Source of the DNA: an uncultured Weeksellaceae bacterium | GTDB lineage: Bacteria; Bacteroidota; Bacteroidia; Flavobacteriales_D; CAYVSK01 | Assembly (NCBI GenBank): GCA_964582635.1 | Contig: CAZOSO010000001.1 | Span: 39,222-71,855 of the forward strand | DNA length: 32,634 nucleotides | Direction: 5' to 3' | Shown here: positions 2,911-31,425 of the stretch, piece after piece | Layout of the letters: every line of letters begins with the position of its first letter | Numbering within the stretch: the first letter of the stretch is position 1 | The notes under the pieces: generated by a model | What the model saw: only the letters and a program-made list of their open reading frames with translations | What the model was told of the DNA's origin: nothing | Databases searched by the model: none | Position numbers and translations under genes: made by a program

Positions 2911-2949
2911 GAACGAAGCTTTGATTCCTTTCTATTTCGCAAGAAAGAG

Positions 2950-2957
2950 CAAAAATA
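2950..2957 (-). promoter_or_regulatory. candidate Bacteroidota -7 promoter box (TATTTTTG) for the nucleotidyltransferase/TPR-lipoprotein operon
   Basis: The reverse complement of caaaaata at 2950-2957 is TATTTTTG, an exact match to TAnnTTTG. It lies 40 nt upstream of the ATG at 2910. Confidence 0.5.
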
Positions 2958-3050
2958 AAGCATTGGGAGATCAAGCCTTCAGGGAAAGCTTACTCATTCA
3001 GTGCGGATCCTATGCTAGAAAAGGATGCTTTATTTCGAGTATGGAGTCCC

Positions 3051-3058
3051 TATATTTG
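3051..3058 (+). promoter_or_regulatory. candidate -7 promoter box (TATATTTG) for the TPR-SpoIIE gene
   Basis: Exact TAnnTTTG match at 3051-3058, ending 7 nt before ATG 3065. Its position implies a leaderless or near-leaderless transcript, or use of a later start. Confidence 0.4.
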
Positions 3059-3064
3059 AGAGCG

Positions 3065-5251
3065 ATGCGTTGTGCTCCTTTATCTCAATGCTCATCGATC
3101 CCTCTTATGCTCCTCTTTCTTTTGATCACAGGGGGAAAGAGCGTTCGATCCCAATCGGGTCCGGATAAAGGATCGCCAAAACTCGATTCGCTTCTCGAAA
3201 AGGCCACCCGTTTTCGTTTCTCGAAACCGGAACAGGCCAAAGAATTAAGTCATCGAGCCCTCGAGCTCGCTAAGAAAAAAGGGCAGCTCAGGGGAAGGGC
3301 AAGGGCTATCGAGCTCTTGGGCGAGCTGAACTTATTCCAGAACCATTTATCGTTAGCAAAGACCCGCTTGAAGCGAGCGGACTCCATCCGAACCCTTATG
3401 GAGGACCCCACGGGGAAGGGAAAGCAAAGGCTCGAGACCGGTTTGATCCTTCTCAATAAACACAAGTTCCTCAAGGCCGACAGCCTCTTTAAAGAGGCAG
3501 CTTCGTATTTCGAAAAAGCAGGTCGGATCGAGCAACTCGGGCGAAGCCATTATTTCCGGGCCAAGGCCTATTATCACAAAAACCTTTTTCCCAAGGCCCT
3601 AAAAGAAGCTCACCGGGCCCTCACCCTTTACGATTCGATCGCTGCTCCGGAAGGGAAAGCCTTGGCTTATCGGAACATCGGAGAGATCCATTGGGCGCAG
3701 GAGAACGAGGATAAAGCGATGGAAGCTTACCAGGAGGCGGCCAATTTCTTCGAAAAGGCTGGCAATGATGCGGGGATAGCCAGTGCAAAGGACCTTATGG
3801 GTGAATATTACCTCCATAAGAAGAAAATAGATTCCGCTCGCCAATGTTACTCACGAGCTCTGGAACTCCGGAACGAAAAGGGAAAGCAATCAGCTTATTC
3901 GCGGGCGAACCTTGCAAGAGCCCTTTTTTGGAAGGAAAAGCTCGATAGCAGCGAACAACTGGCCCGGGAAGCTCTGAAAGTCTTCGAGCGATTTCGCGAT
4001 CCGACCGGATCGATCCAGACGAACAGGATACTCGGAGATATTGCGCAAAAGCGGGGGCAGCTCGATAGTGCTCTTCACTATTACCGGAAGGCGCTCCCGA
4101 AAGCCAAAAGGATCGATGATTTTGGGGCGACTGCCGGCCTTTATCGTTCCATCGCCAAGATCTACGATCGAAAGGGGAGGGGAGGAAAAGCTTATGAAAC
4201 GTTGAAAAAAGCTTCCACCTACGAAGATTCCCTCGCCCTGAAAGAACAAAAGAAGAAGATGGCCGAGCTGACCGCTAAATACGATATGCGGGAACGGAAG
4301 AAAGAATTGAAACTGAAAGAGGCCCAACTCAAGAGGAATCGTTTACGCTTAGCCTTGGTCATGGGCGGTTTGGCCTTGGTGGTCCTTTTCTCCGGATTCC
4401 TCTATTACCAAGTCCGGCAAAAGAAAAAGGCCAACACGGCCTTGGTCCAAAAGAACCATTTGATCGAAGAGAAGAACCGGGAGATCCTTCAGTCCCTTCG
4501 CTATGCGAGCCATATCCAGAGCGCCGTCCTTCCGGAGGAAGAACGAATAAAAGAAAACATCGGCTCCGGCTTCGTCCTCTTCAAACCCAGGGATATGGTC
4601 TCTGGGGACCTTTACTGGATGGAGGAAGAGCAAGGCCTTTTCTTTTTCGCGGTGGTCGACTGTACCGGTCATGGAGTTCCCGGAGCCCTTATCAGCATCC
4701 TTGGGCACAATGCGCTCAACAAAGCCATTAAGGAAGAGCAGTTGCAAGACCCGGCCGATATCCTTTCCTTCCTCGATCAACAGTTGAAACAGACCCTGGG
4801 CAAGCAAAACCAGGGCATGGAGTTAAGGGACGGGATGGACATCGCTTTGTGCTGCTACGACCCCCAGAAGCAGGAGCTGAGCTTTGCTGGAGCGGTCGAA
4901 CCCCTTTATCTGCTCAAGAAAGATGCAGACCGGATCGAAGAGTACAAAGGGGACCGACAACCGGTAGGCGGGATCCTTTCGGAAAGTGAGGGGAAAAAGC
5001 TCTTCACTTCCCAAAAGTTCGCCCTGCAGGAAGGAGATCGTTTTTATATCTTTTCGGACGGTTATCCGGATCAATTCGGTGGGGAAAAAGGTAAAAAGCT
5101 CAAATACAGCAAATTCCGGAACATCATTTTGGAAACTGCGGATGTGTCCGACCTGAGGGAACAAAGAGATGCTTTGGACAAGCGATTCGAGAAATGGCGC
5201 GGGGAACACGAACAAGTGGACGACGTGTTGGTGATCGGAGCTAGGGTCTGA
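3065..5251 (+). CDS. membrane TPR-sensor SpoIIE/PP2C-family protein phosphatase
   Basis: Frame of ORF-track entry 2900..5251. I moved the start to ATG 3065 because the ATGs at 2900 and 2909 overlap the start codon of the divergent gene and a TAnnTTTG box sits at 3051-3058. ATG 3041 and ATG 3107 remain alternatives. Domain order: N-terminal hydrophobic segment (IPLMLLFLLITGG), about 400 aa of TPR-like repeats, a coiled coil, a TM helix (LALVMGGLALVVLFSGFLYY), then SpoIIE-type PP2C motifs (SGDLYW, AVVDCTGHGVPGA, DGMDIAL, FSDGYPDQFGG, DDVLVIG). Confidence 0.85.
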   Translation: MRCAPLSQCSSIPLMLLFLLITGGKSVRSQSGPDKGSPKLDSLLEKATRFRFSKPEQAKELSHRALELAKKKGQLRGRARAIELLGELNLFQNHLSLAKTRLKRADSIRTLMEDPTGKGKQRLETGLILLNKHKFLKADSLFKEAASYFEKAGRIEQLGRSHYFRAKAYYHKNLFPKALKEAHRALTLYDSIAAPEGKALAYRNIGEIHWAQENEDKAMEAYQEAANFFEKAGNDAGIASAKDLMGEYYLHKKKIDSARQCYSRALELRNEKGKQSAYSRANLARALFWKEKLDSSEQLAREALKVFERFRDPTGSIQTNRILGDIAQKRGQLDSALHYYRKALPKAKRIDDFGATAGLYRSIAKIYDRKGRGGKAYETLKKASTYEDSLALKEQKKKMAELTAKYDMRERKKELKLKEAQLKRNRLRLALVMGGLALVVLFSGFLYYQVRQKKKANTALVQKNHLIEEKNREILQSLRYASHIQSAVLPEEERIKENIGSGFVLFKPRDMVSGDLYWMEEEQGLFFFAVVDCTGHGVPGALISILGHNALNKAIKEEQLQDPADILSFLDQQLKQTLGKQNQGMELRDGMDIALCCYDPQKQELSFAGAVEPLYLLKKDADRIEEYKGDRQPVGGILSESEGKKLFTSQKFALQEGDRFYIFSDGYPDQFGGEKGKKLKYSKFRNIILETADVSDLREQRDALDKRFEKWRGEHEQVDDVLVIGARV

Positions 5252-5289: not shown

Positions 5290-5297
5290 TATATTTG
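5290..5297 (+). promoter_or_regulatory. candidate -7 promoter box (TATATTTG) for the USP gene
   Basis: Exact TAnnTTTG match 25 nt upstream of ATG 5322. The TTG at 5295 used by the ORF track lies inside this box, which favours the ATG 5322 start. Confidence 0.5.
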
Positions 5298-5321
5298 AAC
5301 CCAGTTTTAAGCCCTTTAGCG

Positions 5322-6164
5322 ATGAGCACGAAAAAGATCCTGGTACCCACTGACTTTACAAAAGCCGGAAAATGCGCTGAAAGCCACGCTTTGCGCACAG
5401 CACAGATCGTGCACGGAGAAGTTTATCTCCTTCACATCGTAAAGGAACGGGAGGATGTTGAAGAAGCACGCAAAAAGCTCGACCAAGAGGTCCAGGAGCT
5501 TAAAAAGGACCATTCCGTCGAGATCCATCCCATGGTGCGTGTGGGGACCATCTTTGAGGATATCGGGGATGCAGCTACGGAAGTGGAAGCTGACCTGATC
5601 TTCATGGGGACCCATGGCATGAAAGGCATGCAATACCTATTGGGGAGCAATGCCCTGCGCGTGATCAAACACTCTTCCGCCCCTTTCATCGTGGTCCAGG
5701 AAAAGGATATCGATCCGAAGGGTTATGATGACATCGTGGTCCCCTTGGACCTGAGCCAAGAGACCAAACAGAAACTCGATATTACGGTCAACCTGGCCAA
5801 ATACTTCGATTCCAGGATCCATTTGATCACCCCTACGGAAACGGATGAATTCCTCAAGAACCAATTGGACCGGAATCTCCATTTCGCCGAGAACTTTTTC
5901 AAGGAGAACGGCGTGGAGTATACGACCAAGATCGCGAACGAAAAAGCTTCCAACTTTGTGAGCCCCATCGTTCGTCACGCGAGTGAAAAAGATGCGGATC
6001 TGATCACCATCGTCAATCTTAAGGAGAACAGCCTCTTGGGAGCTTTTGCCAGTTCAGAAGAACAAAAGCTGATCACCAACGAAGCTCAGATCCCTGTTAT
6101 GGTGCTCAATCCCCATCAAACCACCGATCCGTCCAGCGTGAGCTTCTCCACAGAAGGAGGGTGA
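5322..6164 (+). CDS. tandem-domain universal stress protein (UspA family)
   Basis: Two Usp-like halves. The first begins MSTKKILVPTDFT and contains a near G-x2-G-x(8-9)-G-S nucleotide-binding motif (GTHGMKGMQYLLGSN). The second begins YDDIVVPLDLS and ends IPVMVLN. Start set at ATG 5322 rather than TTG 5295. Confidence 0.85.
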   Translation: MSTKKILVPTDFTKAGKCAESHALRTAQIVHGEVYLLHIVKEREDVEEARKKLDQEVQELKKDHSVEIHPMVRVGTIFEDIGDAATEVEADLIFMGTHGMKGMQYLLGSNALRVIKHSSAPFIVVQEKDIDPKGYDDIVVPLDLSQETKQKLDITVNLAKYFDSRIHLITPTETDEFLKNQLDRNLHFAENFFKENGVEYTTKIANEKASNFVSPIVRHASEKDADLITIVNLKENSLLGAFASSEEQKLITNEAQIPVMVLNPHQTTDPSSVSFSTEGG

Positions 6165-6170
6165 AAAAGC

Positions 6171-9100
6171 TTATTCTTCAGCGGGGCCTTGCTCGTTGGC
6201 CTCTGCTTCCATCTTGGCCAGACGTTCCTCGATCTCACGAAGGTGCTCCAGTTTTTTCTTACGACGGAGGTTGATGGCCGACTCCGTAAAATAATGATGC
6301 TCCCGAAGGAAGCTCACCTGTAAGCGGTCCCATTCGATCATGCTTTGGATCTTTCCTCGCTCCATCAGCTCTTTTCTCAACTTATCGGCGATCTCGTGAA
6401 AATCCTCTCTTCCCAGATAATCGAGGTCCGCATCGCAAATGATCTCTTCTAAGTGGTTCTTGGGCTTCGGCGGGACCTGGGTCGCATGGATCATGGAGGC
6501 CACCTGGTCCAATTGCTCCTCCGTATACCCGTAATTAGGCAGCATTTCTTTCGCCATTCGGGCCCCGATCCACTCGTTGTTCTCATATTGCTCCACAAAA
6601 CCAGCATCGTGGAAAAGGGCTGCGGTCTTTAAAAGGAAGAGGTCTTCGCCTTCGATCCCTTCCATGAAAGCCAACCTTTCCACTGCTTGGCACACATCTT
6701 CCGTGTGTCGAACATCATGATAATAAAGGTTCTCAGGGAGTTCTTTGCGCAACTTTTTCAGCAGGGCTTTCTCGGCTTTTCGGTAATTGATCTTGCTGAA
6801 GAAGTGAAGGTTCATATACTCCCAGAAGGCCTCGTTGGGCTCTTCACCTTTTCCATCCACCGAGAGTTCCGGTTTAATGCGGTCCACGAAGAACATGTCG
6901 ATATGCCCCTTGTTCTTGGCATGAACCTTACCCCGGTAGGTACATTCGAAAAAGGGCTCGATATAGCTATAAGTGGACCCTGAGATGTTGACCTTTCCGA
7001 CTTCTCCGTTGGATTCCATTCGAGCGGCCACGTTGACCGTATCCCCCCATATATCGTAGGCGTAACGCTTGATCCCGATAACACCTGCGATCAGTTCCCC
7101 CGTATGGATCCCGATCCGGAGTTCCCAATGATCTTCATCCTTGTTCTCGAGGCGATTCCTTTGCTTCTGCATATAGCGCTGGATCTCCATGCCAGCGAGC
7201 ACCGTATGGATCGGATTGGTCTTGTTACGGATAGGGATCCCCCCAGCGCACATATAAGCATCCCCGATGGTCTTGATCTTTTCCAGTTCCCAGCGCTCGA
7301 TGATCTGATCGAACTTGATGAAATAACTGTCGAGCCGGGCCACTAATTCCGTGGCCTTCATTTGCTCGGCGATCTTGGTGAAGCCTTTGAAATCGGTGAA
7401 CATCACTGTTGCCATCCGATAATGCCTAGCCGATGCTCTACCCCCGGTTTTGAGCTCATTAGCCGTATCCTCGGGAAGAAGGTTCACCAATAATTTATCC
7501 ACCTTGTTCTTTTCTTCTTCGAGGAGGGAACGCTGTTCCTCCACTTTTTCCTTCTCTTCCTCAAGGAGCTTGTTCTGTTCTTCGATCCGTTCTTTTTGCT
7601 GGGTCACCTCTTGCGTTCTTCGCCTTACCTCCATTTCGAGCTTCCGCTTTTGGCCCTCGATCAGATTCACCCGATAGCGATAGGCGCCAAAACCGGAGCC
7701 TGCTAAAACGAGCAATCCCAAGCCTCTGAACCACCAAGTAGCCCAATAGGGCCTTTCCACCAAGATCTCAAGTTCGGCAGGCTCTTGAGCCCAAACTCCA
7801 TCGCTGTTACAGCCCCATACTTTAAAGGTGTAAGTGCCCGGGTCGAGGTTCGTATAGTGCGCACTCCGGTCCCTTCCGGCCTCTACCGTGTCTTTATCGA
7901 AACCTTCGAGCAAATAGCGATAGCGGTTCTTCTCGGGTTGAGAATAATGAAGGGCCGCGAACTCGAGGGTGAAGTTGTTCTGATCCGGAGAAAGCACGAT
8001 CCGCTCGGTCTCTTCGATATCCTGCTCGAGCACTCCCCCTTTTTTGGGCCTTTCAGCCACATTAAAGAGTTTGAGCCGGGTGAACACCATTTCGGGGGGA
8101 TAGGGGTTTTTTTCGAGCCGGGAAGGATGAAAGGCGTTCAACCCGTTGATCCCTCCGAAAAAGATCTCCCCGGAATCGGAACGATGATAAGCTCCGATAT
8201 TGAATTCATCGCTCTGAAGGCCATCGCTTTTTTCAAAGACGGTGAACTCTTCCTTCTCCTTATCGAAACGACAGATCCCTCGATTGGTGCTCATCCACAA
8301 ATTTCCTTTCTCATCCCCGAGAACCCCATAGACGACGTTGTTAGGAAGTCCTTCTTTTTCCGTATAGTGCTCCACATGACCGCTCTCAGGGTCGAAGCGA
8401 TTCAAGCCTCCTCCATAGGTCCCTAACCATAAATACCCTTTACTGCCCTCCCATATCGACATCAAGCTGTTGGTGTTCAGACTGTTGGGCTGCTTCGGAT
8501 CCCGTTCGAAGACCTTCAGCTCATAACTTCGCTCGCCGTTCTTTTCGATCACCCGCAGCCGATTCAATCCACCCCCGTCCGTTGCGATCCAAAGATTTCC
8601 TTTGGATCCTTTGTGAATATCCCTTACCAGGGAATGCGATAACCTTGCGGTCGCGGAGCTATCGGTGCTGAACAGTTCAAGCTTTCCGCTCTGTGGATCA
8701 TAGCGTTTAAGACCGGTCCTTGTTCCGAGCCAAAGGATCCCATCTTTTCCTCGGAGGATATTGTAAACCTTGCTCCTTTGGACGCTTTCACCCTTTTTTC
8801 TCCTTTCATACGGCATTTTAATATAGCGTGCCGTGGAGGGATCGCTTCCGAGCTCTATCCGATAAAGGCCATCCACACACCCGGCCCAGATCTTTTCCCC
8901 AAGACTCAAAGACAGAACGCTCTTATCGTTAACGTCCGGGAACCTTTCGATGGGTCGATCGTAATGGTAGTAATGTCCTTGTTCCCGCTCAAACCGAGTG
9001 ATCCCTTTTCGGGTCCCCACCCATAGCTCGTTTTCCGAAGCGGTGGTGATCTCCCATACGTTCTTATCGTTCAACCCCTTTTCACTGAGGACATGGGAGG

Positions 9101-10172
9101 TGATATGTTGAAAGAACTGCTTGTTCGGATCGAATTTGCTCACCCCTCTACGGGAGCCGATCCAAATGGAGCCGGTACGGTCTTCATGGATCGTGTTGAC
9201 GATGTCGTTCGCCAAGCTTGAGGAAATATAATCCTGGTGCTGGTATTGATAGAAGCGCCTTTGACCGTCCTTTTTATAAGCACGAAGCAATCCCCCACCC
9301 GCTGTTCCGAACCAGAGTCGGCCTTTCCGGTCCAGGTGGATCGCCTTGACCACCGGATGAGGAAGTTTCCCCTTTCCTTCTCCGCCTCCGATCCGTTCGA
9401 GGATCCGGATCTTGCCTTTTTCCCGAGCCAGCTTAAAGAGCCCTTTATCGGTCCCTACCCACATTTCACTAGCCGATATGGGGTGAAGAGCATGAACAGC
9501 CCCCTCCTTGATAGGAGTCGGGAACAGCGCTCCCCGCTCGGGACAATAGAGAAAAAGGCCTTTTCCACTCGTCCCGACCCAGAGAGAATCTTTCCCTTTC
9601 CATCGGAGGGTGCGAACGGAAGTCGGAACAGAGAGGGACCCTTTATTGCTCATTCCGGGCGATCTGGCCACTCCACTATCCTTCTTCAGTACATGGATCC
9701 CATTATCCTGGGTCGCTATCCACACATTCCCTTCTCCATCCCTTTCCAGATCCTGGACGACCGGATCGAAACCTTCTTCAAAAGGGATGGAATGAAAAGA
9801 GCCGGTCCGATGTCGATACCGATCAAGGCCATTTTCCGATCCGACCAGAACATGGCCTTCAGGACCCAGGGCAAGGGAATGAATAAAATTATCGGAAATG
9901 GAACCGGAATCGAGCGGGTCCTTTTGATAGACCGTGAATTCGTAACCATTGAAACGGTTGAGCCCATCCTGGGTACCGATCCATATCATTCCCTTTGGGT
10001 CTTGTATAATGCAATTGACAGTGCTCTGGGATAGCCCGTTCTGAATGGTATAATGATCGAAGCGGATATCGGGCTTTTCTGCTGTACCTGTTCGAGGGAC
10101 CAGCAAAAAGAGAACAAAAAGGGTGTGGATCAAGAAGGATGGACCTTCTCTAGGGGATAGCATCGCGATCAT
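6171..10172 (-). CDS. periplasmic double beta-propeller/Y_Y_Y sensor fused to a class III adenylate cyclase and an HD-domain phosphohydrolase
   Basis: ORF-track frame 6171..10229. Start set at ATG 10172, which forms an ATGA overlap with the stop of the upstream gene; ATG 10163 is an alternative. Signal/anchor segment is FLIHTLFVLFLLVP. There are 14 Reg_prop-like blades (recurring W[IVL]GT..GL.R[FY], from MIWIGTQDGLNRF to EIFFGGINGLNAF), then a Y_Y_Y-like segment (RYRYLLEGFD...YTFKVWG), a TM helix (WWFRGLGLLVLAGSGFGAY) and a coiled coil. The cyclase core carries FTDFKGFT, KTIGDAYM and YDIWGDTVNVAARME. The C-terminus has the HD pattern YHDVRH ... LFHDAG ... CDADLDYLGR. Confidence 0.88.
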   Translation of the reverse strand: MIAMLSPREGPSFLIHTLFVLFLLVPRTGTAEKPDIRFDHYTIQNGLSQSTVNCIIQDPKGMIWIGTQDGLNRFNGYEFTVYQKDPLDSGSISDNFIHSLALGPEGHVLVGSENGLDRYRHRTGSFHSIPFEEGFDPVVQDLERDGEGNVWIATQDNGIHVLKKDSGVARSPGMSNKGSLSVPTSVRTLRWKGKDSLWVGTSGKGLFLYCPERGALFPTPIKEGAVHALHPISASEMWVGTDKGLFKLAREKGKIRILERIGGGEGKGKLPHPVVKAIHLDRKGRLWFGTAGGGLLRAYKKDGQRRFYQYQHQDYISSSLANDIVNTIHEDRTGSIWIGSRRGVSKFDPNKQFFQHITSHVLSEKGLNDKNVWEITTASENELWVGTRKGITRFEREQGHYYHYDRPIERFPDVNDKSVLSLSLGEKIWAGCVDGLYRIELGSDPSTARYIKMPYERRKKGESVQRSKVYNILRGKDGILWLGTRTGLKRYDPQSGKLELFSTDSSATARLSHSLVRDIHKGSKGNLWIATDGGGLNRLRVIEKNGERSYELKVFERDPKQPNSLNTNSLMSIWEGSKGYLWLGTYGGGLNRFDPESGHVEHYTEKEGLPNNVVYGVLGDEKGNLWMSTNRGICRFDKEKEEFTVFEKSDGLQSDEFNIGAYHRSDSGEIFFGGINGLNAFHPSRLEKNPYPPEMVFTRLKLFNVAERPKKGGVLEQDIEETERIVLSPDQNNFTLEFAALHYSQPEKNRYRYLLEGFDKDTVEAGRDRSAHYTNLDPGTYTFKVWGCNSDGVWAQEPAELEILVERPYWATWWFRGLGLLVLAGSGFGAYRYRVNLIEGQKRKLEMEVRRRTQEVTQQKERIEEQNKLLEEEKEKVEEQRSLLEEEKNKVDKLLVNLLPEDTANELKTGGRASARHYRMATVMFTDFKGFTKIAEQMKATELVARLDSYFIKFDQIIERWELEKIKTIGDAYMCAGGIPIRNKTNPIHTVLAGMEIQRYMQKQRNRLENKDEDHWELRIGIHTGELIAGVIGIKRYAYDIWGDTVNVAARMESNGEVGKVNISGSTYSYIEPFFECTYRGKVHAKNKGHIDMFFVDRIKPELSVDGKGEEPNEAFWEYMNLHFFSKINYRKAEKALLKKLRKELPENLYYHDVRHTEDVCQAVERLAFMEGIEGEDLFLLKTAALFHDAGFVEQYENNEWIGARMAKEMLPNYGYTEEQLDQVASMIHATQVPPKPKNHLEEIICDADLDYLGREDFHEIADKLRKELMERGKIQSMIEWDRLQVSFLREHHYFTESAINLRRKKKLEHLREIEERLAKMEAEANEQGPAEE

Positions 10173-11959
10173 TCTACTGCCACCCCGATAACCAGGATAT
10201 CGTCGATCTGTTCTAGGTCGCCTTTCCATTCCTCGATGGTCCGATCGAGCACTTCCTTCTGCTCGCTCATGGGTTTATCGCTGATGGATATCAGGAGTTC
10301 CTTGAAGGGGCGATATTTGAACTTCTTTCCCTTGGGACCGCCGAATTGATCGGGAAAGCCATCGGAGAAAACATAAAGGATATCCCCTTTTTGGACGTCG
10401 ATATCGATGGTGCTGTAATTGTGATCTTCCTGGCCACCGATCGGGTTCTTATCGGCTTTATATTCCAGAAGCTCTTCATTCCTTACGATGTAAAGGGGGT
10501 TATTAGCTCCGGCGAACTGGACCCTACGGTTCTCCTTATCGAGGGTACAAAGAGCCATATCCATCCCATCGTTCACGGATTCCCCTTCGCTCGTGCGTGT
10601 GAGCGATTTTGTCGCGGATCGATCGAGGTCGTCGAGGATCTTACCCGCATCTTCGAGCTCGTGTTCGTTCACGGCTTGGTGAAGCCCGTTATGCCCCACC
10701 AGGCTCATAAAGGCCCCTGGCACCCCGTGGCCGGTACAATCGACCGCGGCGAAGATCTGTTTCCCTTTCGTTGTCTCTTCGAACCAATAAAAATCCCCTG
10801 AAACGATATCCTTCGGCTTGAAAAGCACGAAAGAATAAGGGAGTTTATCCGCGATCCACTCGTCGGAGGGTAATATGGAGCTTTGAAGCCTTTTCGCATA
10901 GCGGATGCTATCGGTGAGGTCCTTGTAAAGGCCTTCAACCTTTTGCTTTTGCTCCACCACTTCCTGCGTCCTCTGCCGGACTTTCTCTTCGAGGATCCGC
11001 TCGTTCTCTCTAAGGTCGTCCCTCATCTTCAAAAGGGCATGCCCGAGGGTATCGTGGGGGCTCAGGGGTTCGAACTCGTAATCGAAGTTGCCGGCCCCTA
11101 CCTGCTTGGAGAAATCGGTGGTCCTTTTAAGCCCGTCCACCAGATCGTTGAGAGCCTCCGACATCTCACCGATCTCGTCATTGGTCGGCTTGATCCGATG
11201 TTCGGGAAAGATCCCTCGGCCAAGGGACAGGAGGATCCGCTTAAGGTTCTGTACCGGCTGCACGATGGAACGCACCGTGAATATGGCAATGAGGAGGCCT
11301 ACGATGATCAATCCCACTCCCACATAGCGGACCAGGAATTGAAGGGTATCGAAAGATGCGATCATGTCCCCTCTTACCTCCCTCGTAGCCTTCTTTTGCC
11401 GCTGGATCAGATCCTCCAAAAGGGTAATGAGGTTCTCGGTCTTTTGGTGGACCTCCCCCCCGCTTTCCACTTTAGGGAGGACCATGAGGCGTTTGGAAGG
11501 AACTTGATAACTATCGAACGATGAGAGGGAGCTTCGAATGGTTTCGTGGACCTCGAAAAGGCTTTTGATGTTATCGTAGATCTGATCGAGGAGTTCTTTC
11601 CGTGTTTTATCGTATTCATCCACGTTACGCTCACTCCAATGTGTGGAAAGGCTCTCCAAACTATCGCGGAGTGTGGGCCACTCCCTCTTGATCAACGTAT
11701 CGAGCTCTTGCTTCTTCTGGTTATCCCTGCGACTTTGAACCAGTCCCCAATAAGTGATGAGCATCTGAGAGCGTACGATCTTCAGCTTCAACTCCTGAAG
11801 CTTATCGATCGAAGGGCTATAGATGTTGTTGATACGCCGGTTGATCGAGCGGCTCTTATCCAGGGCATCGTTCGTGAAGAAAAGGACCAGAACGATGAAG
11901 AATATAAAGAAACCGAAACCGGTAAAGATCTTTCTCCCTATGGTGAATCGAAAGGGCAA
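10169..11959 (-). CDS. membrane sensor HAMP-domain SpoIIE/PP2C-family protein phosphatase
   Basis: 596-aa ORF. TTG start 9 nt after the upstream stop; there is no in-frame ATG for the first 65 codons. Domain order: TM1 (IFTGFGFFIFFIVLVLFF), an extracytoplasmic helical domain of about 175 aa, TM2 (VGVGLIIVGLLIAIFTV), a HAMP-like segment (IVQPVQNL...DEIGEMSEALNDLVDGL), a coiled coil, then SpoIIE motifs (SGDFYW, AAVDCTGHGVPGA, DGMDMAL, FSDGFPDQFGG, DDILVIG). Confidence 0.88.
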   Translation of the reverse strand: MPFRFTIGRKIFTGFGFFIFFIVLVLFFTNDALDKSRSINRRINNIYSPSIDKLQELKLKIVRSQMLITYWGLVQSRRDNQKKQELDTLIKREWPTLRDSLESLSTHWSERNVDEYDKTRKELLDQIYDNIKSLFEVHETIRSSLSSFDSYQVPSKRLMVLPKVESGGEVHQKTENLITLLEDLIQRQKKATREVRGDMIASFDTLQFLVRYVGVGLIIVGLLIAIFTVRSIVQPVQNLKRILLSLGRGIFPEHRIKPTNDEIGEMSEALNDLVDGLKRTTDFSKQVGAGNFDYEFEPLSPHDTLGHALLKMRDDLRENERILEEKVRQRTQEVVEQKQKVEGLYKDLTDSIRYAKRLQSSILPSDEWIADKLPYSFVLFKPKDIVSGDFYWFEETTKGKQIFAAVDCTGHGVPGAFMSLVGHNGLHQAVNEHELEDAGKILDDLDRSATKSLTRTSEGESVNDGMDMALCTLDKENRRVQFAGANNPLYIVRNEELLEYKADKNPIGGQEDHNYSTIDIDVQKGDILYVFSDGFPDQFGGPKGKKFKYRPFKELLISISDKPMSEQKEVLDRTIEEWKGDLEQIDDILVIGVAVE

Positions 11960-11968
11960 GGCCTTCTA

Positions 11969-12862
11969 TCAGTGTTTTCTTTCCTTAATGATCTTTTTCT
12001 TCAATTCCTTGTAGTGCTTGGATTTTTCGTCTTCATTCAAGCTATAGTAAATACCGGATAGGCCTTCGAGAGTCTCCAACCGCTTCGGCCTTTGCTCGTG
12101 AGCTTTCTTCATGTAAGGAAGGGCCTTTTTGAATTTTTGAGTGGAGCGCTTTTGCATCTTCTTGACCTTTTTCAGGTCCACATCCATCTGAGTCGGATCC
12201 ACCTTTTGAGCGATCTGAACGCCCCAGTTGTAATACAAAATGCCTGAATTGTAATTGGCCAAATAATTGGAACTATCCAATCTCAGGACCTCTCCAAAGG
12301 CATCGATCGCCTTTTCAAAGCTTTCCTTGTCATGTCCCCTTTGTTTTTCATAAAGGCTCATGTAGACCACTCCCAGGCTATTCTTAAATCCGATGATATC
12401 TTTCTTAAGGTCCTTCTCAGCCTTACCGGATTCCTTCATAAGGGATATATAGCGCTCGTAAAGCTGCACAGGCTTTTCGATACGGCTGGTGTCAAGCCGT
12501 TTCATGGCATCATTGTAATAAGTTTGGGCCATGTATTTCAGCCCTTTTTGGCAGGCCTTCTTGACCCTTTCTTCTGCTCCTTTCTCGATCGCTTTTTTAA
12601 AGGATCCGATGGCTTTTTTCCGGTTCTTGGAACGTTCAGGTTCTTCAGTGGCCTTGAAAAGGTCTTTATAGATGAAGCCCCTGACTTGCCAGGTATAAGC
12701 TTCTTTTTTCTCTTTCTTCAGGGTGATCGCGCTATCGATCTTTTCCTGGGCCTCCCTTAATTCCTTATTCTGATAATGCTTAAGGGCCAATTGGGTCGCG
12801 CTTTGCCCTAAGGCTCCTGCAGAGAGGAGAAGAAGGGACGATATGAGAACAACGCGCAACAT
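11969..12862 (-). CDS. secreted TPR-like helical-repeat protein, function unknown
   Basis: ORF-track frame 11969..12868, whose first codon is TTG. ATG at 12862 gives MLRVVLISSLLLLSAGALGQ, a clean signal peptide. The rest is lysine-rich and helical with TPR-like segments (AIDAFGEVLRLDSSNYLANYNSGILYYNWG). I recognise no specific family. Confidence 0.7.
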   Translation of the reverse strand: MLRVVLISSLLLLSAGALGQSATQLALKHYQNKELREAQEKIDSAITLKKEKKEAYTWQVRGFIYKDLFKATEEPERSKNRKKAIGSFKKAIEKGAEERVKKACQKGLKYMAQTYYNDAMKRLDTSRIEKPVQLYERYISLMKESGKAEKDLKKDIIGFKNSLGVVYMSLYEKQRGHDKESFEKAIDAFGEVLRLDSSNYLANYNSGILYYNWGVQIAQKVDPTQMDVDLKKVKKMQKRSTQKFKKALPYMKKAHEQRPKRLETLEGLSGIYYSLNEDEKSKHYKELKKKIIKERKH

Positions 12863-12864
12863 GG

Positions 12865-13428
12865 TCAATGGACCTTATAGGCCAATTCTTGTAGCTGATT
12901 CCCGACCGTAAGCCCGTACTTCTTTGCGTTACCCCGACTCAGCTCGTATTCGAGTTGATTGTTCTTGATGACGAAATTGATCACCGCTCCCCGCCGTAAC
13001 GCTCCTTGCCTTTCGGACACCAAAAGAGTGCTCCGATCTTCGCTTTTGAGTTGGCTCAAAGAAGAGGTCTCCTCCTTTCCTATAAATAGGATGTTGCAAC
13101 GGGAACCCACATCATCCGCGCTACTGTATTTTTTGATATCGATGGTCTGATTCCCGATCCGCTTGTCCTGATACTTCTTGCGGAGCTCTTTATAGAGGTT
13201 GTCGGAGTCCCCGTCGACCAAAAGGCCGATCGTGAAATCACCTTGTTTATAGGCTCTCGGCCAATCGACAAGCTTGGTGAAACTAAAAAGGTAGGCGGCC
13301 TTATAGATCGATTTCGTGTCCTCCTCCTGGTTCTGAGCATAGAGGCTGATACTTCCCAGCAAGAGGGAACAAAGAAATATGGGAAGTAATTTTCTCAAAA
13401 CCACGTTCAGAGGACCTAATGATCGCAA
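12865..13428 (-). CDS. YfiR-like periplasmic protein (DUF4154 family)
   Basis: Signal peptide (LLPIFLCSLLLGSISLYAQ) followed by the DUF4154/YfiR hallmark K-A-A-[YF]-L-x-x-F-x-K-[FL]-V-[DE]-W-P (here KAAYLFSFTKLVDWP). Later conserved-looking blocks are CNILFIG, LLVSE, GAVINFV and YELSRGNAKKYGLTVGNQL. The start is uncertain: TTG 13428 is the ORF-track start, and GTG 13404 or TTG 13398 (giving MRKLLPIF...) are alternatives. Confidence 0.75.
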   Translation of the reverse strand: MRSLGPLNVVLRKLLPIFLCSLLLGSISLYAQNQEEDTKSIYKAAYLFSFTKLVDWPRAYKQGDFTIGLLVDGDSDNLYKELRKKYQDKRIGNQTIDIKKYSSADDVGSRCNILFIGKEETSSLSQLKSEDRSTLLVSERQGALRRGAVINFVIKNNQLEYELSRGNAKKYGLTVGNQLQELAYKVH

Positions 13429-13430
13429 TT

Positions 13431-13458
13431 TAAGAAAACTCCGTCCATCGGACGGAGC
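13431..13458 (-). terminator. rho-independent terminator of the ferritin gene
   Basis: The minus-strand RNA reads CUCCGUCC-GAU-GGACGGAG followed by UUUUCUUAAAUU. The stem is 13439-13446 paired with 13450-13457 (8 bp). It lies about 80 nt downstream of the ferritin stop. Confidence 0.7.
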
Positions 13459-13534
13459 CTTTCTCCTCCCAACTTCATACCGATCGTATAAGACCTATTG
13501 AAGTTCGGAGCGATAACGAGAAAGCTGCAGGGAC

Positions 13535-14056
13535 TTACTCGTTACCCCCGTTGCCCCCTTCATCTCCGTGTTTGAAGTTCTCCAGATCGCGGTCGAACAG
13601 GTAAAGACCTGCTTTATCGTTCCCGATCATATTAAGCTTATCCAGGATGTCCCGAGCCAGGGATTCTTCTTCGATCTGCTCGGAAACGTACCATTGCATG
13701 AAATTGTGGGTGGTATAGTCTTTCTCATCAAGACATTTCTCGACGATGTCATTGATATGCTCCGTGACTTGGATCTCATGGTCCAAGACCTTTTGAAAGA
13801 TCTTGCCAAGGGAGGTGAACGTAGCATCCGGCTTTTCCAACTGGGGAACGATCGCATGCCCTCCTCTTTCATTGATGAAATGAATAAGCTTCAGCATGTG
13901 CTGCCGCTCTTCATCGGAGTGTTGGAAAAGGAATTTCGCCGTCCCGCTATAACCTTGTGTTTCTGCCCATGAGGCCATCGAAAGGTAGAACTGTGAGGAT
14001 TCAGCCTCAATGGCGACCTGAGCGTTGAGAAGTTTTTCGATCTTTTTGGAAAGCAT
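13535..14056 (-). CDS. ftnA: non-haem bacterial ferritin
   Basis: 173 aa with an ATG start. LNAQVAIEAESSQFYLSMASWAE ... QHSDEERQHMLKL ... VLDHEIQVTEHIN ... MQWYVSEQIEEE matches the ferritin four-helix bundle and its ferroxidase Glu/His ligands. Confidence 0.9.
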   Translation of the reverse strand: MLSKKIEKLLNAQVAIEAESSQFYLSMASWAETQGYSGTAKFLFQHSDEERQHMLKLIHFINERGGHAIVPQLEKPDATFTSLGKIFQKVLDHEIQVTEHINDIVEKCLDEKDYTTHNFMQWYVSEQIEEESLARDILDKLNMIGNDKAGLYLFDRDLENFKHGDEGGNGGNE

Positions 14057-14183
14057 AGGATCCTAGGTTTTGATTCTTTGGATCGAAATTACACTTCTTT
14101 TGCTGCAAGGGGCAATTTGATTCCCCTAATGATCCGCCTTTTCCTTAACGAAAAAGCAATAAAAAAGCCTCCTTCCACTTCCG

Positions 14184-14191
14184 TACCTTTA
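14184..14191 (+). promoter_or_regulatory. near-consensus -7 box (TACCTTTA) upstream of rnr
   Basis: One mismatch to TAnnTTTG (final G to A). It ends 17 nt before ATG 14209. Confidence 0.3.
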
Positions 14192-14208
14192 CAACACACA
14201 ATTCGAAT

Positions 14209-16353
14209 ATGAGCAATAAACATAAAGGAAAAGGGCAGGGGAAATTCAAGCAACAGCTTCGCGATCAAGTAGAAAAGATCTTATCCGAACAACCCAAGCG
14301 GACCTTCAATCCTAAACAACTAGCATCCCACCTCCAATTAAAGACCAAGGACCAACGGAAGGCGCTCGAAAAGGTTCTGGAGCGCATGGTCCGGAAAGAA
14401 GAGATCGTCAAGAAAGGAAGGGCCGGATATAAAGCCTCTCCCAAGGTCGCTTATGTGGAGGGAAAGGTGGATATGACCCGAAGGGGATCCGCCTACGTTA
14501 TTTCGGATGAACTCGAGAGCGATGTTTTCATCGCCCCTAAAGACCTTTCAACCGCTCTCGACGATGACCGGGTGAAAGTGCATCTTTTTGCACGGAGCAA
14601 AGGAAAGAACCCTGAAGGAGAGGTCGTGGAGATCCTTAAAAGGGCACGTGAGTCTTATGTGGGAACCTTAGAAGTGAAAAAAGATTTCGCTTTCCTCATC
14701 CCGGACCACGAGAAAATGCACGTGGACATCTACATTCCCCTTGATCGGCTTAATAAAGGGAAAGATGGGGAAAAGGCGATCGCAGAGATCACGGATTGGC
14801 CCCCCGAAGCATCAAGTCCCTTTGGACGAGTGATGCAGATCTTAGGAGCTCCTGGCGATCATGAGGTCGAAATGCATTCCATCCTCGCCGAATACGAGCT
14901 TCCCTCGGACTTTCCGGATGAGGTCAAGAACAGTGCTGAAAAGATCCCGGATGAGATCCCTGAAGAAGAGCTCCAAAAAAGAAGGGATATCCGGGAAACA
15001 CCCACATTTACCATCGATCCGTATGATGCCAAGGATTTCGACGATGCGATCAGTTATCGCCGGACCGAGGAAGGGCTCCATGAAGTAGGGGTCCATATCG
15101 CTGATGTTTCCCATTATGTGAGACCGGGATCCACCGTTGATCAGGAAGCATACAAGCGAGCCACCTCCGTTTATTTGGTCGACCGGGTGGTTCCGATGCT
15201 CCCTGAACACCTTTCCAACGGTGTTTGCTCTTTGCGCCCGGAAGAAGATAAGCTCACTTTTTCAGCCATCTTTCACCTTAACGACGCCGGGAAGATCGAA
15301 AAGGAATGGTTCGGTAAGACCGTTTCCCGTTCGGATCGACGTTTCACCTACGATGAAGCTCAGGAGATCCTCGATGGAAAGGTGCAAGGGCCCTTGAAAG
15401 AGGAACTCCAACGAGTGAACGAGCTCGCAAAAACTCTTCGCAAAGAACGAGTGGAACATGGCTCCCTGGAGATCGAGAGCGAGGAGGTGAAATTCGAACT
15501 CGATGAGGAAGGGCGACCTGTAAGCATCGTTCCCAAGGTCATCAGAGAGGCCAATCAGCTCATCGAGGATATGATGTTATTGGCCAATCGTCGGGTAGCT
15601 GCTCATATAGGAGCTAGGGAAAAACCCAAACCCTTTATTTATCGAGTCCATGATACCCCGGACGAGGAGAAACTAAAAGTCCTCAAAGAGTTCGTGGGCA
15701 AATTCGGCTATAAGCTCCATTTCAAACCCGGAAAATCAGCTTCTTACGCGATCAACAAACTGCTCCACGACATTAAAGGGTCCTCAGAGGAAAGCGTGAT
15801 CTCCTATATGGCCATTCGATCCATGGCCAAGGCGGTCTATAGTACGGACAACATAGGACATTACGGACTCGCTTTCGAATACTATACCCATTTTACCTCG
15901 CCCATCCGTCGATATCCCGACCTTGAGGTCCATAGAGACCTCCATCGGTTCCTCCAAGAAGGAAAGACCGCCGAAAAGGACGACCTGGAAGAAATATGTC
16001 TTCATGCTTCCGAAAGGGAGGGCAAGGCGACCGAAGCCGAAAGGGATTCGATCAAGTATAAACAGGTGGAGTACCTGAAGGACAAAGTGGGGGAAAGCTT
16101 TCCTGGGATCGTTAGCGGGATCACCGATTGGGGACTCTTCGTAGAATTAAAGGAAAGCAAGTGCGAAGGGTTGATCCGCTTGCGCGATATCGACGATGAC
16201 CTCTATTATTTCGACCAAAAGAACTACCGGATCATCGGAAATCGAACAGGCCGGCAATTCGATATAGGGGATGAAATAGAAGTCCAGGTGACAGCTGTGG
16301 ACCTGAAGAGGAAAGAGCTGGACCTGAAACTATTGAGTGAAGAGGGGGAATAA
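14209..16353 (+). CDS. rnr: ribonuclease R (3'-5' exoribonuclease)
   Basis: 714 aa. Basic N-terminal region and cold-shock-like domains, then RNB catalytic motifs (FTIDPYDAKDFDDAIS, VHIADVSHYV, SVYLVDRVVPMLP, HYGLAFEYYTHFTSPIRRYPDL), then a C-terminal S1 domain (FPGIVSGITDWGLFVEL). Confidence 0.93.
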   Translation: MSNKHKGKGQGKFKQQLRDQVEKILSEQPKRTFNPKQLASHLQLKTKDQRKALEKVLERMVRKEEIVKKGRAGYKASPKVAYVEGKVDMTRRGSAYVISDELESDVFIAPKDLSTALDDDRVKVHLFARSKGKNPEGEVVEILKRARESYVGTLEVKKDFAFLIPDHEKMHVDIYIPLDRLNKGKDGEKAIAEITDWPPEASSPFGRVMQILGAPGDHEVEMHSILAEYELPSDFPDEVKNSAEKIPDEIPEEELQKRRDIRETPTFTIDPYDAKDFDDAISYRRTEEGLHEVGVHIADVSHYVRPGSTVDQEAYKRATSVYLVDRVVPMLPEHLSNGVCSLRPEEDKLTFSAIFHLNDAGKIEKEWFGKTVSRSDRRFTYDEAQEILDGKVQGPLKEELQRVNELAKTLRKERVEHGSLEIESEEVKFELDEEGRPVSIVPKVIREANQLIEDMMLLANRRVAAHIGAREKPKPFIYRVHDTPDEEKLKVLKEFVGKFGYKLHFKPGKSASYAINKLLHDIKGSSEESVISYMAIRSMAKAVYSTDNIGHYGLAFEYYTHFTSPIRRYPDLEVHRDLHRFLQEGKTAEKDDLEEICLHASEREGKATEAERDSIKYKQVEYLKDKVGESFPGIVSGITDWGLFVELKESKCEGLIRLRDIDDDLYYFDQKNYRIIGNRTGRQFDIGDEIEVQVTAVDLKRKELDLKLLSEEGE

Positions 16354-16361
16354 GGAAGCGA

Positions 16362-17114
16362 TCAGATCAGATTGATCCGTTCCTGGAGGGAATCCTTGTA
16401 AGCTCCTCCGACGGGGATCGTTTTCTTATCCTCCTGGAGGATCACGTGGTTTTGTTCGATCCGATCGATCTTATCGAGGTTAACGATATAGGACCGGTGA
16501 ACCCGTAAAAAACGATCGGTAGGGATCTTCTTTTCGATATCCTTCATCGTGGAATGCACGGTATATCGGGTTTCCTTGGTATTGATCACCACATAATCCT
16601 TCAGGGCTTCGATGAAATAGACTTCATCGGCATGGAGCTTGACCAAGCCGTGCTTGGATTTAACGAAGATCCGGTCACCGGGATCCCGACTGTCCATGAT
16701 CTGATAAAGGAGGTCCCGTTCTTTTCGTACTTCGCTTTCCCTACCGTGCTTATAGAGGGCCATCTCGATGGTGGTATGGAGGTCGACCTCTTTAAAAGGT
16801 TTGATGATGTACCCATAAGGTTCCGTGACCTTGGCTTTGGAAAGCGTATTCTCATCCGCGTAGGCCGTCAAATAAATGACCGGTATATCGAGCTTGGAGC
16901 GGATCTCTTCGGCAGCTTCAACACCGGTCTTCTCCCCCTTGAGCATGATGTCCATAAGGACCACATCCGGATGCTGCTCCAGGGATAAGGTGACAGCATT
17001 CTCACCCGTTGGAGCTGTTCCGAGTACTTGGTAACCGAGTTTTTCCAGGCTTTGCTGGATATCCTTAGCTACGATGCTCTCATCTTCTACAATGAGTACC
17101 TTGGTCCTTGACAT
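16362..17114 (-). CDS. LytTR-family response regulator (receiver plus LytTR DNA-binding domain)
   Basis: 250 aa. CheY-like receiver (VLIVEDES...VVLMDIML...IYLTAY...KP) followed by LytTR-type motifs (IFVKSKHGLVKLHADEVYFIEALKDYV, FLRVHRSYIVNLDKI). Confidence 0.9.
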   Translation of the reverse strand: MSRTKVLIVEDESIVAKDIQQSLEKLGYQVLGTAPTGENAVTLSLEQHPDVVLMDIMLKGEKTGVEAAEEIRSKLDIPVIYLTAYADENTLSKAKVTEPYGYIIKPFKEVDLHTTIEMALYKHGRESEVRKERDLLYQIMDSRDPGDRIFVKSKHGLVKLHADEVYFIEALKDYVVINTKETRYTVHSTMKDIEKKIPTDRFLRVHRSYIVNLDKIDRIEQNHVILQEDKKTIPVGGAYKDSLQERINLI

Positions 17115-17131
17115 TCAGAACAGTCTTAGGG

Positions 17132-31417: not shown

Positions 31418-31425
31418 CCCTTTCC

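Follow-up and report, generated by a model that had tools for sequence, protein, structure and literature searches.

To our knowledge, nearly all that has been learned of YfiR concerns its role as the periplasmic brake of a single diguanylate cyclase in Proteobacteria, and HmsC likewise represses its cyclase. We know of no YfiR-like or TPR-like partner of the phosphatase SiaA, and of no assigned inputs or substrates for the many SpoIIE-type phosphatases of Flavobacteriales. Pseudomonas YfiR represses its cyclase and carries two conserved cysteine pairs connected with redox-sensitive folding (PMC4655355), and SiaA dephosphorylates the partner-switch protein SiaC (PMC7647112). The window analysed here, a stretch of 32,634 nucleotides (nt; 32.6 kb) from an uncultured Weeksellaceae bacterium (contig CAZOSO010000001.1), carries four minus-strand open reading frames (ORFs) at positions 6171-13428, packed nearly without spacers as read from the ORF list and the sequence. 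From 5' to 3' these encode a YfiR-like protein (gene 1), a TPR-like protein (gene 2), a sensor phosphatase (gene 3) and a propeller-cyclase-HD protein (gene 4). Genes 1-3 are a widely conserved three-gene periplasm-sensing phosphatase module (the triad), and the cyclase is probably its facultative accessory rather than an obligate part, added in about a quarter of related genomes.

The conservation of the triad was assessed in 80 loci from species-representative genomes (denoted by L numbers), which were fetched via alignment of phosphatase orthologues; 23 of these hold a full-length or near-full-length orthologue and the other 57 are paralogues sharing only the PP2C domain. Clustering of ORFs over 27 orthologous loci (26 genome-derived loci and the window) recovered the phosphatase family in 23, the YfiR-like family in 21 and the TPR-like family in 21. 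Loci without a small partner gene are cut too short upstream, the exception being L019, in which the YfiR-like gene lies on the opposite strand. Beyond the triad, no gene family occurs in more than 11 of the 27 loci (ferritin, upstream, 11; universal stress protein (Usp) 10; cyclase 5; RNase R 3). A scan of metagenomes with the sensor domain as query contributed a further 16 PP2C-type loci that extend far enough upstream, and all 16 carry both small genes directly upstream. Further, profile searches of the 57 paralogous loci (0.93 Mb) detected neither a separate YfiR-like gene nor a TPR-like orthologue. The sole YfiR-like match among them is the fusion in L034 considered below, and three matches to the TPR profile (including those in L057 and L075) were set aside as generic TPR proteins, not orthologues of gene 2. 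The triad is found in metagenome-assembled genomes (MAGs) of Flavobacteriales, Cytophagales and Sphingobacteriaceae; it is kept where all flanking genes differ (e.g., L083, L023 and many metagenome loci) and down to ~38% phosphatase identity, the closest relatives being Flavobacteriales MAGs with identities up to 86%. Co-occurrence of the three genes, together with the absence of the two partner genes from paralogous loci, therefore establishes genes 1-3 as the conserved unit.

The product of gene 1 is a distant member of the YfiR family. In Pfam, where bit scores were compared with the curated cut-offs (NCBIfam models being used in addition), it matches DUF4154 with 96.4 bits against a cut-off of 24.9, and it scores 90.2 bits, under the cut-off of 125, against the NCBIfam model of TOL_0243-family YfiR-like proteins. 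A phmmer search of the PDB with the single sequence gave no useful match and a 17-member family profile reached PDB YfiR at only E = 0.4; since sequence and profile searches of the PDB are too weak, the YfiR assignment needed a comparison of folds. In Foldseek, the best 15 PDB matches of the AlphaFold2 model (predicted local distance difference test score, pLDDT, of 82.9) are all YfiR, with TM-scores of 0.68-0.77 at 14-17% identity. The next structural matches are substrate-binding proteins, namely a Rhodothermus protein and 3LFT, an ABC-type binding domain with L-Trp. The N-terminus of gene 1 is a signal-peptide-like hydrophobic segment with no lipobox cysteine. A word-indexed homologue search with this protein returned 14 close relatives only, so the survey of DUF4154 contexts by that search covers near relatives and does not extend to distant ones.

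Gene 2 encodes a protein whose single sequence gives only sub-threshold matches (20-24 bits) to Pfam TPR. Its 21-member family profile matches designed consensus TPR proteins via one canonical repeat at positions 184-216, and supports the assignment. The gene occurs only alongside the PP2C-type sensor, in the 27 orthologous loci as well as in the metagenome loci. In L011 (8135-9992, plus strand), the YfiR-like and phosphatase genes are separated by two tandem TPR-like paralogues.

In gene 3, a first transmembrane helix, a periplasmic four-helix bundle, a second transmembrane helix, a HAMP domain, a coiled coil and a SiaA-type PP2C domain follow one another. The transmembrane segments, at residues 11-29 and 215-233, enclose ~185 periplasmic residues. 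In the AlphaFold2 model (pLDDT 79 over the whole phosphatase), helices of the sensor region span residues 7-73, 81-105, 120-144, 148-164 and 169-247 with pLDDT of 84-95, and the second transmembrane helix runs on into HAMP. The best Foldseek match of the PP2C domain is 6K4E (the PP2C domain of SiaA; 33% identity, TM-score 0.88), and the NCBIfam SiaA model (NF038263) scores 250.3 bits over residues 276-594 against an equivalog cut-off of 700. Residues D389, D407, D467, D533, D586 and D587 are invariant across 29 phosphatase orthologues; they are presumably the metal ligands typical of the PP2C family. The N-terminal 289 residues have 867 representative homologues at E ≤ 0.001. Outputs in a 67-member sample of these include GAF, PAS, MCPsignal, HisKA/HATPase, SpoIIE and REC as well as one cyclase, and one homologue matches 4HB_MCP_1; given such varied outputs, the sensor is therefore a swappable input module.

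YfiR-like genes also adjoin sensors with other outputs. In eight metagenome loci (L098, L099, L100 and L102-L106), a YfiR-like gene lies 9-25 nt 5' of a gene for a homologous sensor-HAMP-GAF(-PAS) protein of 579-649 residues that has no recognised enzymatic output; four of these proteins were checked in Pfam, where three end in PAS. The eight loci have no TPR-like gene, and in L099, L104 and L106 both flanks of the pair are oppositely oriented. CHASE8 is the sensor domain of YfiN, and in L087 (8903-14110, plus strand) a YfiR-like gene is followed after 15 nt by a CHASE8-HAMP-HisKA-HATPase kinase gene. Two single-domain receivers and a PAS hybrid kinase come after that kinase, and two tandem four-helix-bundle HAMP-GAF sensors are encoded just upstream. 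L034 (4005-6047, plus strand), from a Flavobacteriales MAG, encodes a 680-residue fusion of a signal peptide, DUF4154 (64.8 bits), a coiled coil of ~190 residues, one transmembrane helix and a PP2C domain (SpoIIE, 76.3 bits) of the same subfamily as that of gene 3, a natural joining of the two partners. The fusion, the GAF-PAS pairings and the CHASE8 kinase connect the YfiR-like protein with the sensor next to it, on the side of the periplasmic input. Together with the conserved adjacency, the fusion and the pairings also speak, if indirectly, for a YfiR-type binding and repression of the membrane enzyme.

The junctions of the locus bear out the four packed minus-strand genes of the initial annotation, with spacers of 2, 9 and -4 nt (Table 1), and this spacing is compatible with its reading of a single operon. 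Gene 1 ends in TGA at 12867-12865 and gene 2 opens with ATG at 12862-12860, leaving 2 nt; an alternative TTG at 12868 for gene 2 would overlap the stop of gene 1. Between the TGA of gene 2 (11971-11969) and the TTG of gene 3 (11959) lies a 9-nt spacer, TAGAAGGCC, which opens with a second in-frame stop. The TGA of gene 3 (10171-10169) overlaps the ATG of gene 4 (10172) in a 4-nt ATGA. A terminator scan found no terminator-like hairpins in the three junctions, and its 14 hairpins over the region are at chance level (12.0 ± 2.9 expected). A sigma-70 promoter scan gave 3 hits against 8.0 by chance; the model is not built for Bacteroidota promoters and is uninformative on internal ones. The hairpin between the ferritin gene and gene 1 is GC-rich (CTCCGTCC-GAT-GGACGGAG followed by TTTTCTT, the palindrome being reported on the plus strand by the scan), and is likely the ferritin terminator and the upstream boundary of the four-gene unit. 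We infer that the four genes are probably a single transcription unit holding two signalling modules. With regard to the starts, the alignment of orthologues makes GTG 13404 or TTG 13398 likelier for gene 1 than TTG 13428 of the maximal ORF, and the public call has 179 residues from GTG 13404 (P0241). For gene 3, TTG 11959 is backed by orthologues with 100% coverage at ~596 residues; the public call of 531 residues from an internal Met (P0001) would remove the first transmembrane helix. ATG 10172 of gene 4 agrees with the public call of 1333 residues (P0121).

Table 1. Features of the four-gene locus and of its neighbours in the window.
Feature	Coordinates	Strand	Evidence
Gene 1, secreted YfiR-fold (DUF4154) periplasmic protein	12865..13428	-	Pfam DUF4154; AlphaFold2/Foldseek
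Gene 2, secreted all-alpha TPR-like protein, 297 residues	11969..12862	-	Signal peptide, no lipobox; family profile
Gene 3, inner-membrane sensor phosphatase, 596 residues	10169..11959	-	Pfam, NCBIfam, AlphaFold2, Foldseek
Gene 3, periplasmic four-helix-bundle sensor (~residues 30-214)	11318..11872	-	AlphaFold2
Gene 3, HAMP domain (residues 227-278)	11126..11281	-	Pfam HAMP, 32.4 bits (cut-off 25)
Gene 3, PP2C (SpoIIE-type) domain (residues 399-594)	10178..10765	-	Pfam SpoIIE, 70.9 bits (cut-off 25)
Gene 4, sensor adenylate cyclase, 1333 residues	6171..10172	-	Pfam; alignment of 27 orthologues; public call
Gene 4, periplasmic Reg_prop propellers and Y_Y_Y	7764..10037	-	Reg_prop, 133.5 bits (cut-off 20.4); Y_Y_Y, 68.1 bits (cut-off 26.6)
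Gene 4, class III cyclase catalytic domain	6885..7427	-	Guanylate_cyc, 165.7 bits (cut-off 21.9); adenylate-specific residues
Gene 4, probable C-terminal HD-superfamily hydrolase domain	6426..6707	-	Pfam HD, 21.5 bits (cut-off 22)
Hairpin, likely ferritin terminator	13432..13457	-	Stem, loop GAT and T-rich tail (terminator scan)
Ferritin gene, upstream, same strand	13535..14056	-	Pfam Ferritin, 130 bits
Tandem universal-stress-protein (Usp) gene	5295..6164	+	Pfam Usp, 98 bits
Second SiaA-like PP2C phosphatase	2900-5251	+	208 bits to SiaA model

Gene 4 comprises a signal/anchor segment, two beta-propellers (Reg_prop), a Y_Y_Y domain, a transmembrane helix, a coiled coil, a class III cyclase domain and a probable HD domain. 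Its propeller and Y_Y_Y region is bracketed by two hydrophobic segments (residues 12-26 and ~811-833), and the coiled coil before the catalytic domain matches the C-terminal end of the HNOBA model. Six residues (D927, D971, K967, D1040, N1047 and R1051) are invariant in 27 cyclase orthologues; by their motifs (FTD, KTIGD, YDIWG and TVN..ARME), these are presumably the two metal-binding Asp, the Lys/Asp pair for ATP and the transition-state Asn/Arg. Judged from its residues, the cyclase appears catalytically complete, with all six canonical class III residues and a Lys/Asp pair specifying ATP. In the HD region, H1152, H1156, H1188, D1189, D1247, D1249 and D1251 (H..HD..D) are invariant in 27 orthologues, many cyclase orthologues carry precomputed PF01966 matches, and the family profile matches the HD hydrolase 2PQ7 at E = 1.6e-4, while a PDB search with the single sequence gave nothing useful. 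A role of this domain as a phosphodiesterase of cyclic AMP (cAMP) is attractive, but class I phosphodiesterases are matched only at E > 0.2, and such weak profile matches do not warrant the claim. Full-length cyclase orthologues are widespread in Flavobacteriales, where JGI annotations name the domains only. We know of no characterised enzyme that has a propeller ectodomain, a cyclase and a C-terminal HD domain, and a literature search on class III cyclases in Bacteroidetes returned nothing specific.

With these results, the domain calls of the initial annotation stand above the cut-offs for DUF4154, HAMP, SpoIIE, Reg_prop, Y_Y_Y and Guanylate_cyc; those of HD and TPR fall below threshold and are supported by family profiles. 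Its statement that all four products face the periplasm is upheld, by signal-peptide-like N-termini in genes 1 and 2 and by ectodomains flanked by transmembrane segments in genes 3 and 4. For the cyclase, the term envelope-sensing is too specific; its ectodomain of propellers and Y_Y_Y is of the kind with which hybrid two-component systems of Bacteroides bind glycans in the periplasm.

The linkage of the cyclase to the triad is looser than that within the triad. Of ~33 triad loci whose downstream sequence is usable, 9 carry a cyclase-HD gene 3' of the triad and in the same orientation, and in 7 of the 9 it is the gene immediately after the phosphatase. Thus, the single four-gene unit proposed at first is supported for its first three genes, which are conserved together, but not as an obligate unit with the cyclase; four-gene synteny as such, which had been posed as a question, does recur in relatives. 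In the window, the cyclase gene comes next after the phosphatase gene with the ATGA overlap, and in L081 (86% phosphatase identity) it follows with a 4-nt overlap. The gap is 56 nt in L082 (62% identity) and at least 118 nt in L012; two unrelated genes intervene in L083 (58% identity), and in L001 the cyclase lies ~6.6 kb from the phosphatase. In L115, L116 and L119, the phosphatase is followed by a short cyclase of 514 residues, which has transmembrane segments, a coiled coil, cyclase and HD domains but lacks the propeller and Y_Y_Y ectodomain. In a full ferritin-YfiR-TPR-PP2C locus, its gene begins 2 nt (L116; 8761-10305, plus strand) or 6 nt (L119) past the end of the phosphatase gene. The other ~24 of the 33 triad loci have no cyclase downstream: a convergent Usp gene directly follows the phosphatase gene in five loci, and in many others the downstream genes are unrelated. 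The cyclase orthologues of L084 and L085 (40-45% identity) stand in unrelated neighbourhoods with no triad nearby. All nine cyclase-linked loci also have the upstream ferritin gene, and in a neighbour-joining tree of the phosphatase, which is crude and only indicative, they fall in two separate branches, plus L001. The pattern fits either an ancient ferritin-triad-cyclase order with repeated losses or repeated gains. As a separate observation, the RNase R and cyclase genes of L081, the nearest relative (5598-7745 and 11788-15772), are each split in two calls, probably by frameshifts or assembly errors.

Taken together, the triad is best read, at a probability of about 0.6, as a YfiR/YfiN-like arrangement in which the sensor has been swapped and PP2C is the output, and with which a cAMP module is facultatively co-expressed. 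By analogy with YfiR and YfiN, the YfiR-like protein would bind the periplasmic four-helix bundle and set its signalling state, and the signal would pass through the second transmembrane helix, HAMP and the coiled coil to the SiaA-type Ser/Thr phosphatase. The TPR-like protein may serve as a third periplasmic component, which probably modulates or titrates the interaction of the YfiR-like protein with the sensor in a YfiB-like role, with no homology to YfiB. The phosphatase, by comparison with the action of SiaA on SiaC, would dephosphorylate a cytoplasmic phosphoprotein encoded elsewhere. Gene 4 would be self-contained, its propeller and Y_Y_Y ectodomain driving the class III adenylate cyclase, and the ATGA overlap may couple it translationally to the triad, so that the two modules would be co-expressed in this lineage.

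Several observations weigh against this interpretation. The periplasmic domain of the triad sensor is not homologous to CHASE8 of YfiN, so that the analogy spans two kinds of sensor. Gene 1 lacks the cysteine pairs of Pseudomonas YfiR, and its one mature Cys, C111 in the numbering of the maximal ORF, is unconserved in 17 orthologues. Near the triad, in the 27 orthologous loci, neither a YfiB-like lipoprotein nor any conserved OmpA-family gene was seen, and no kinase or STAS/SiaC-like family is conserved as a partner of the phosphatase. In six loci, whose GAF-type sensors are the nearest to the query of the scan, no YfiR-like gene lies upstream, and the pairing of YfiR-like proteins with these sensors is therefore specific to some subfamilies. 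The hairpin lies only ~28 nt 5' of the likely start of gene 1, which leaves almost no room for a promoter, and a promoter was not located. Finally, a cyclase-HD gene directly after the phosphatase gene recurs in two tree branches, including the short form that lacks a sensor; such recurrence suggests more than accidental co-expression and keeps a functional link between triad and cyclase open.

As an alternative, the YfiR-like protein may be an activating co-receptor loaded with a ligand, in the manner of LuxP-LuxQ and TorT-TorS, with the TPR-like protein as scaffold or chaperone. The substrate-binding proteins that rank right after YfiR in the structural comparison agree with this, as do the missing redox cysteines of YfiR, and in the L034 fusion DUF4154 is the only ectodomain, which suits sensing better than pure inhibition. 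HmsC and YfiR, the latter described in PMC4655355, are nevertheless the only characterised family members and repress their cyclases; further, a co-receptor departs from the YfiR/YfiN-like arrangement only in the sign and the trigger of regulation. We consider this account tentative and on the whole rather unlikely.

The view of the initial annotation, an integrated four-protein unit, would place the cyclase, too, under the control of the triad (for example, through dephosphorylation or contact by the PP2C domain), so that one input serves two outputs. The overlap of the phosphatase and cyclase genes here and in L081, the recurrence of a downstream cyclase in both tree branches and L001, and the position of the sensor-less cyclases of L115, L116 and L119 straight behind the phosphatase all speak in its favour, and SiaA offers a precedent, being a phosphatase that ultimately controls the nucleotide cyclase SiaD (PMC7647112). 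Such a unit is difficult to reconcile with the ~24 of 33 triad loci that lack a downstream cyclase, with the Usp gene that takes its place in five, with the intervening genes of L083 and the distance in L001, or with the cyclase orthologues of L084 and L085 that have no triad nearby. The long cyclase, moreover, has its own large ligand-binding ectodomain and needs no outside input, and no phospho-acceptor or adaptor protein was found. An integrated unit is thus judged unlikely. A stronger version, which we regard as doubtful, would make the cyclase-HD enzyme the direct target of the triad in lineages with gene 4: the PP2C domain would set cAMP by dephosphorylating or docking with it, the triad would be the sole source of input for the short cyclases in L115, L116 and L119, and DUF4154 proteins would be modular periplasmic co-receptors. 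If that holds, such co-receptors would plug into at least three sensor classes of Bacteroidota: the CHASE8 kinases, the GAF-PAS proteins with a four-helix bundle, and the PP2C phosphatases, of which some are fused to DUF4154.

That the adjacency is mere inherited gene order among related Flavobacteriales, devoid of functional meaning, is very improbable: conservation of the neighbourhood does extend in part to ferritin (11 of 27), Usp (10 of 27) and RNase R (3 of 27), but the triad persists where the flanks differ and to ~38% phosphatase identity, its partner genes are missing from the 57 paralogous loci, a natural DUF4154-PP2C fusion exists, and YfiR-like genes pair with other members of the same sensor family.

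With regard to the surroundings, the Usp gene converges on the stop of the cyclase gene, with 6 nt between the two stops. It is the convergent neighbour in its 10 orthologous loci as well as in L110, and the commonest downstream neighbour of the triad. As a functional partner it is a weak candidate: it is convergent, missing from many triad loci and has no tie to the phosphatase. In the second PP2C phosphatase of the window (Table 1), a large TPR region replaces the four-helix-bundle sensor and HAMP, and the Usp gene comes next. On the minus strand at 16362-22857, the window encodes a 1381-residue kinase whose core is of the HisKA_2/HWE type and which has six or more PAS domains; a LytTR response regulator comes after it, and a gene for a MORN-repeat protein precedes the kinase gene with a 4-nt overlap, an arrangement shared with L081. 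A domain scan of the window found no genes for STAS, SiaC-like or anti-sigma kinase (SiaB/RsbW-like) proteins. Two further ORFs, 30524-31417 (plus strand, 297 residues) and 31399-32076 (minus strand, 225 residues), have no Pfam match at E ≤ 0.001, and Rfam and tRNA scans of the window were empty.

Literature searches on DUF4154, YfiR with SpoIIE, YfiR in Bacteroidetes, TOL_0243 and YfiR-like proteins returned no description of the triad, and the proposal of the initial annotation that the combination is undescribed agrees with this, as no published description of a system of DUF4154 with a SpoIIE/PP2C phosphatase was found. The YfiR-fold proteins of Bacteroidota travel with a different sensor, a SiaA-type output and an extra TPR-like partner in dozens of species-level genomes, which recasts DUF4154 as a general, swappable periplasmic input module. 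The triad provides an experimentally tractable entry to Ser/Thr-phosphatase signalling in Flavobacteriales. Further, that the triad is repeatedly coupled to a propeller-cyclase-HD enzyme points to a cAMP pathway still to be explored in Bacteroidota, for which the cyclases with and without a sensor next to the triad provide a natural comparison.

Among known systems, YfiBNR (with YfiN also named TpbB) of P. aeruginosa and HmsCDE of Yersinia are alike in that the gene of a secreted YfiR-fold protein adjoins that of an enzyme of the order transmembrane helix, periplasmic domain, transmembrane helix and HAMP, within a three-gene unit that includes a third extracytoplasmic protein. The triad differs from YfiBNR in its sensor, a ~185-residue four-helix bundle where YfiN has CHASE8; in its output, which is PP2C where YfiN has a GGDEF cyclase (gene 3 matches neither CHASE8 nor GGDEF); and in its third protein, which is soluble and TPR-like where YfiB is an OmpA/Pal-like outer-membrane lipoprotein. 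In addition, the cysteine pairs of YfiR are absent in gene 1 and identity to YfiR is only ~15%. Out of four testable features of YfiBNR, the triad has the secreted YfiR-fold protein and lacks the YfiN-type partner, YfiB and the cysteine pairs. LuxP-LuxQ and TorT-TorS resemble the triad in the small secreted alpha/beta protein beside a membrane sensor, on which it presumably docks. This is a functional analogy only, as the YfiR fold is half of the type I binding-protein fold and the output of the triad is a phosphatase.

Gene 4 shares the double beta-propeller, the Y_Y_Y domain and the single transmembrane helix after them with the hybrid two-component systems of Bacteroides (e.g., BT4663-type), in which a histidine kinase, a receiver and an AraC-type DNA-binding domain follow; in gene 4 a coiled coil, the cyclase and HD follow instead, and its C-terminal part matches only Guanylate_cyc and HD in Pfam. 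With membrane-bound class III (IIIa-type) cyclases, which have a signalling helix or cyclase-transducer element, it shares the six catalytic residues and the preceding coiled coil, and it is set apart from them by the propeller ectodomain and the C-terminal HD domain.

For the phosphatase, SiaA of the SiaABCD system of P. aeruginosa is the closest comparison, with the same architecture of transmembrane helix, periplasmic domain, transmembrane helix, HAMP and PP2C; its PP2C domain is the nearest one of solved structure, and its model gives the best score in NCBIfam. Gene 3 nevertheless scores far under the equivalog cut-off of that model, the match omits the periplasmic region, and no homologues of siaB, siaC and siaD are present at this locus or conserved nearby. 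In its probable mode of working the triad therefore resembles both YfiBNR and SiaA, yet it belongs to neither system.

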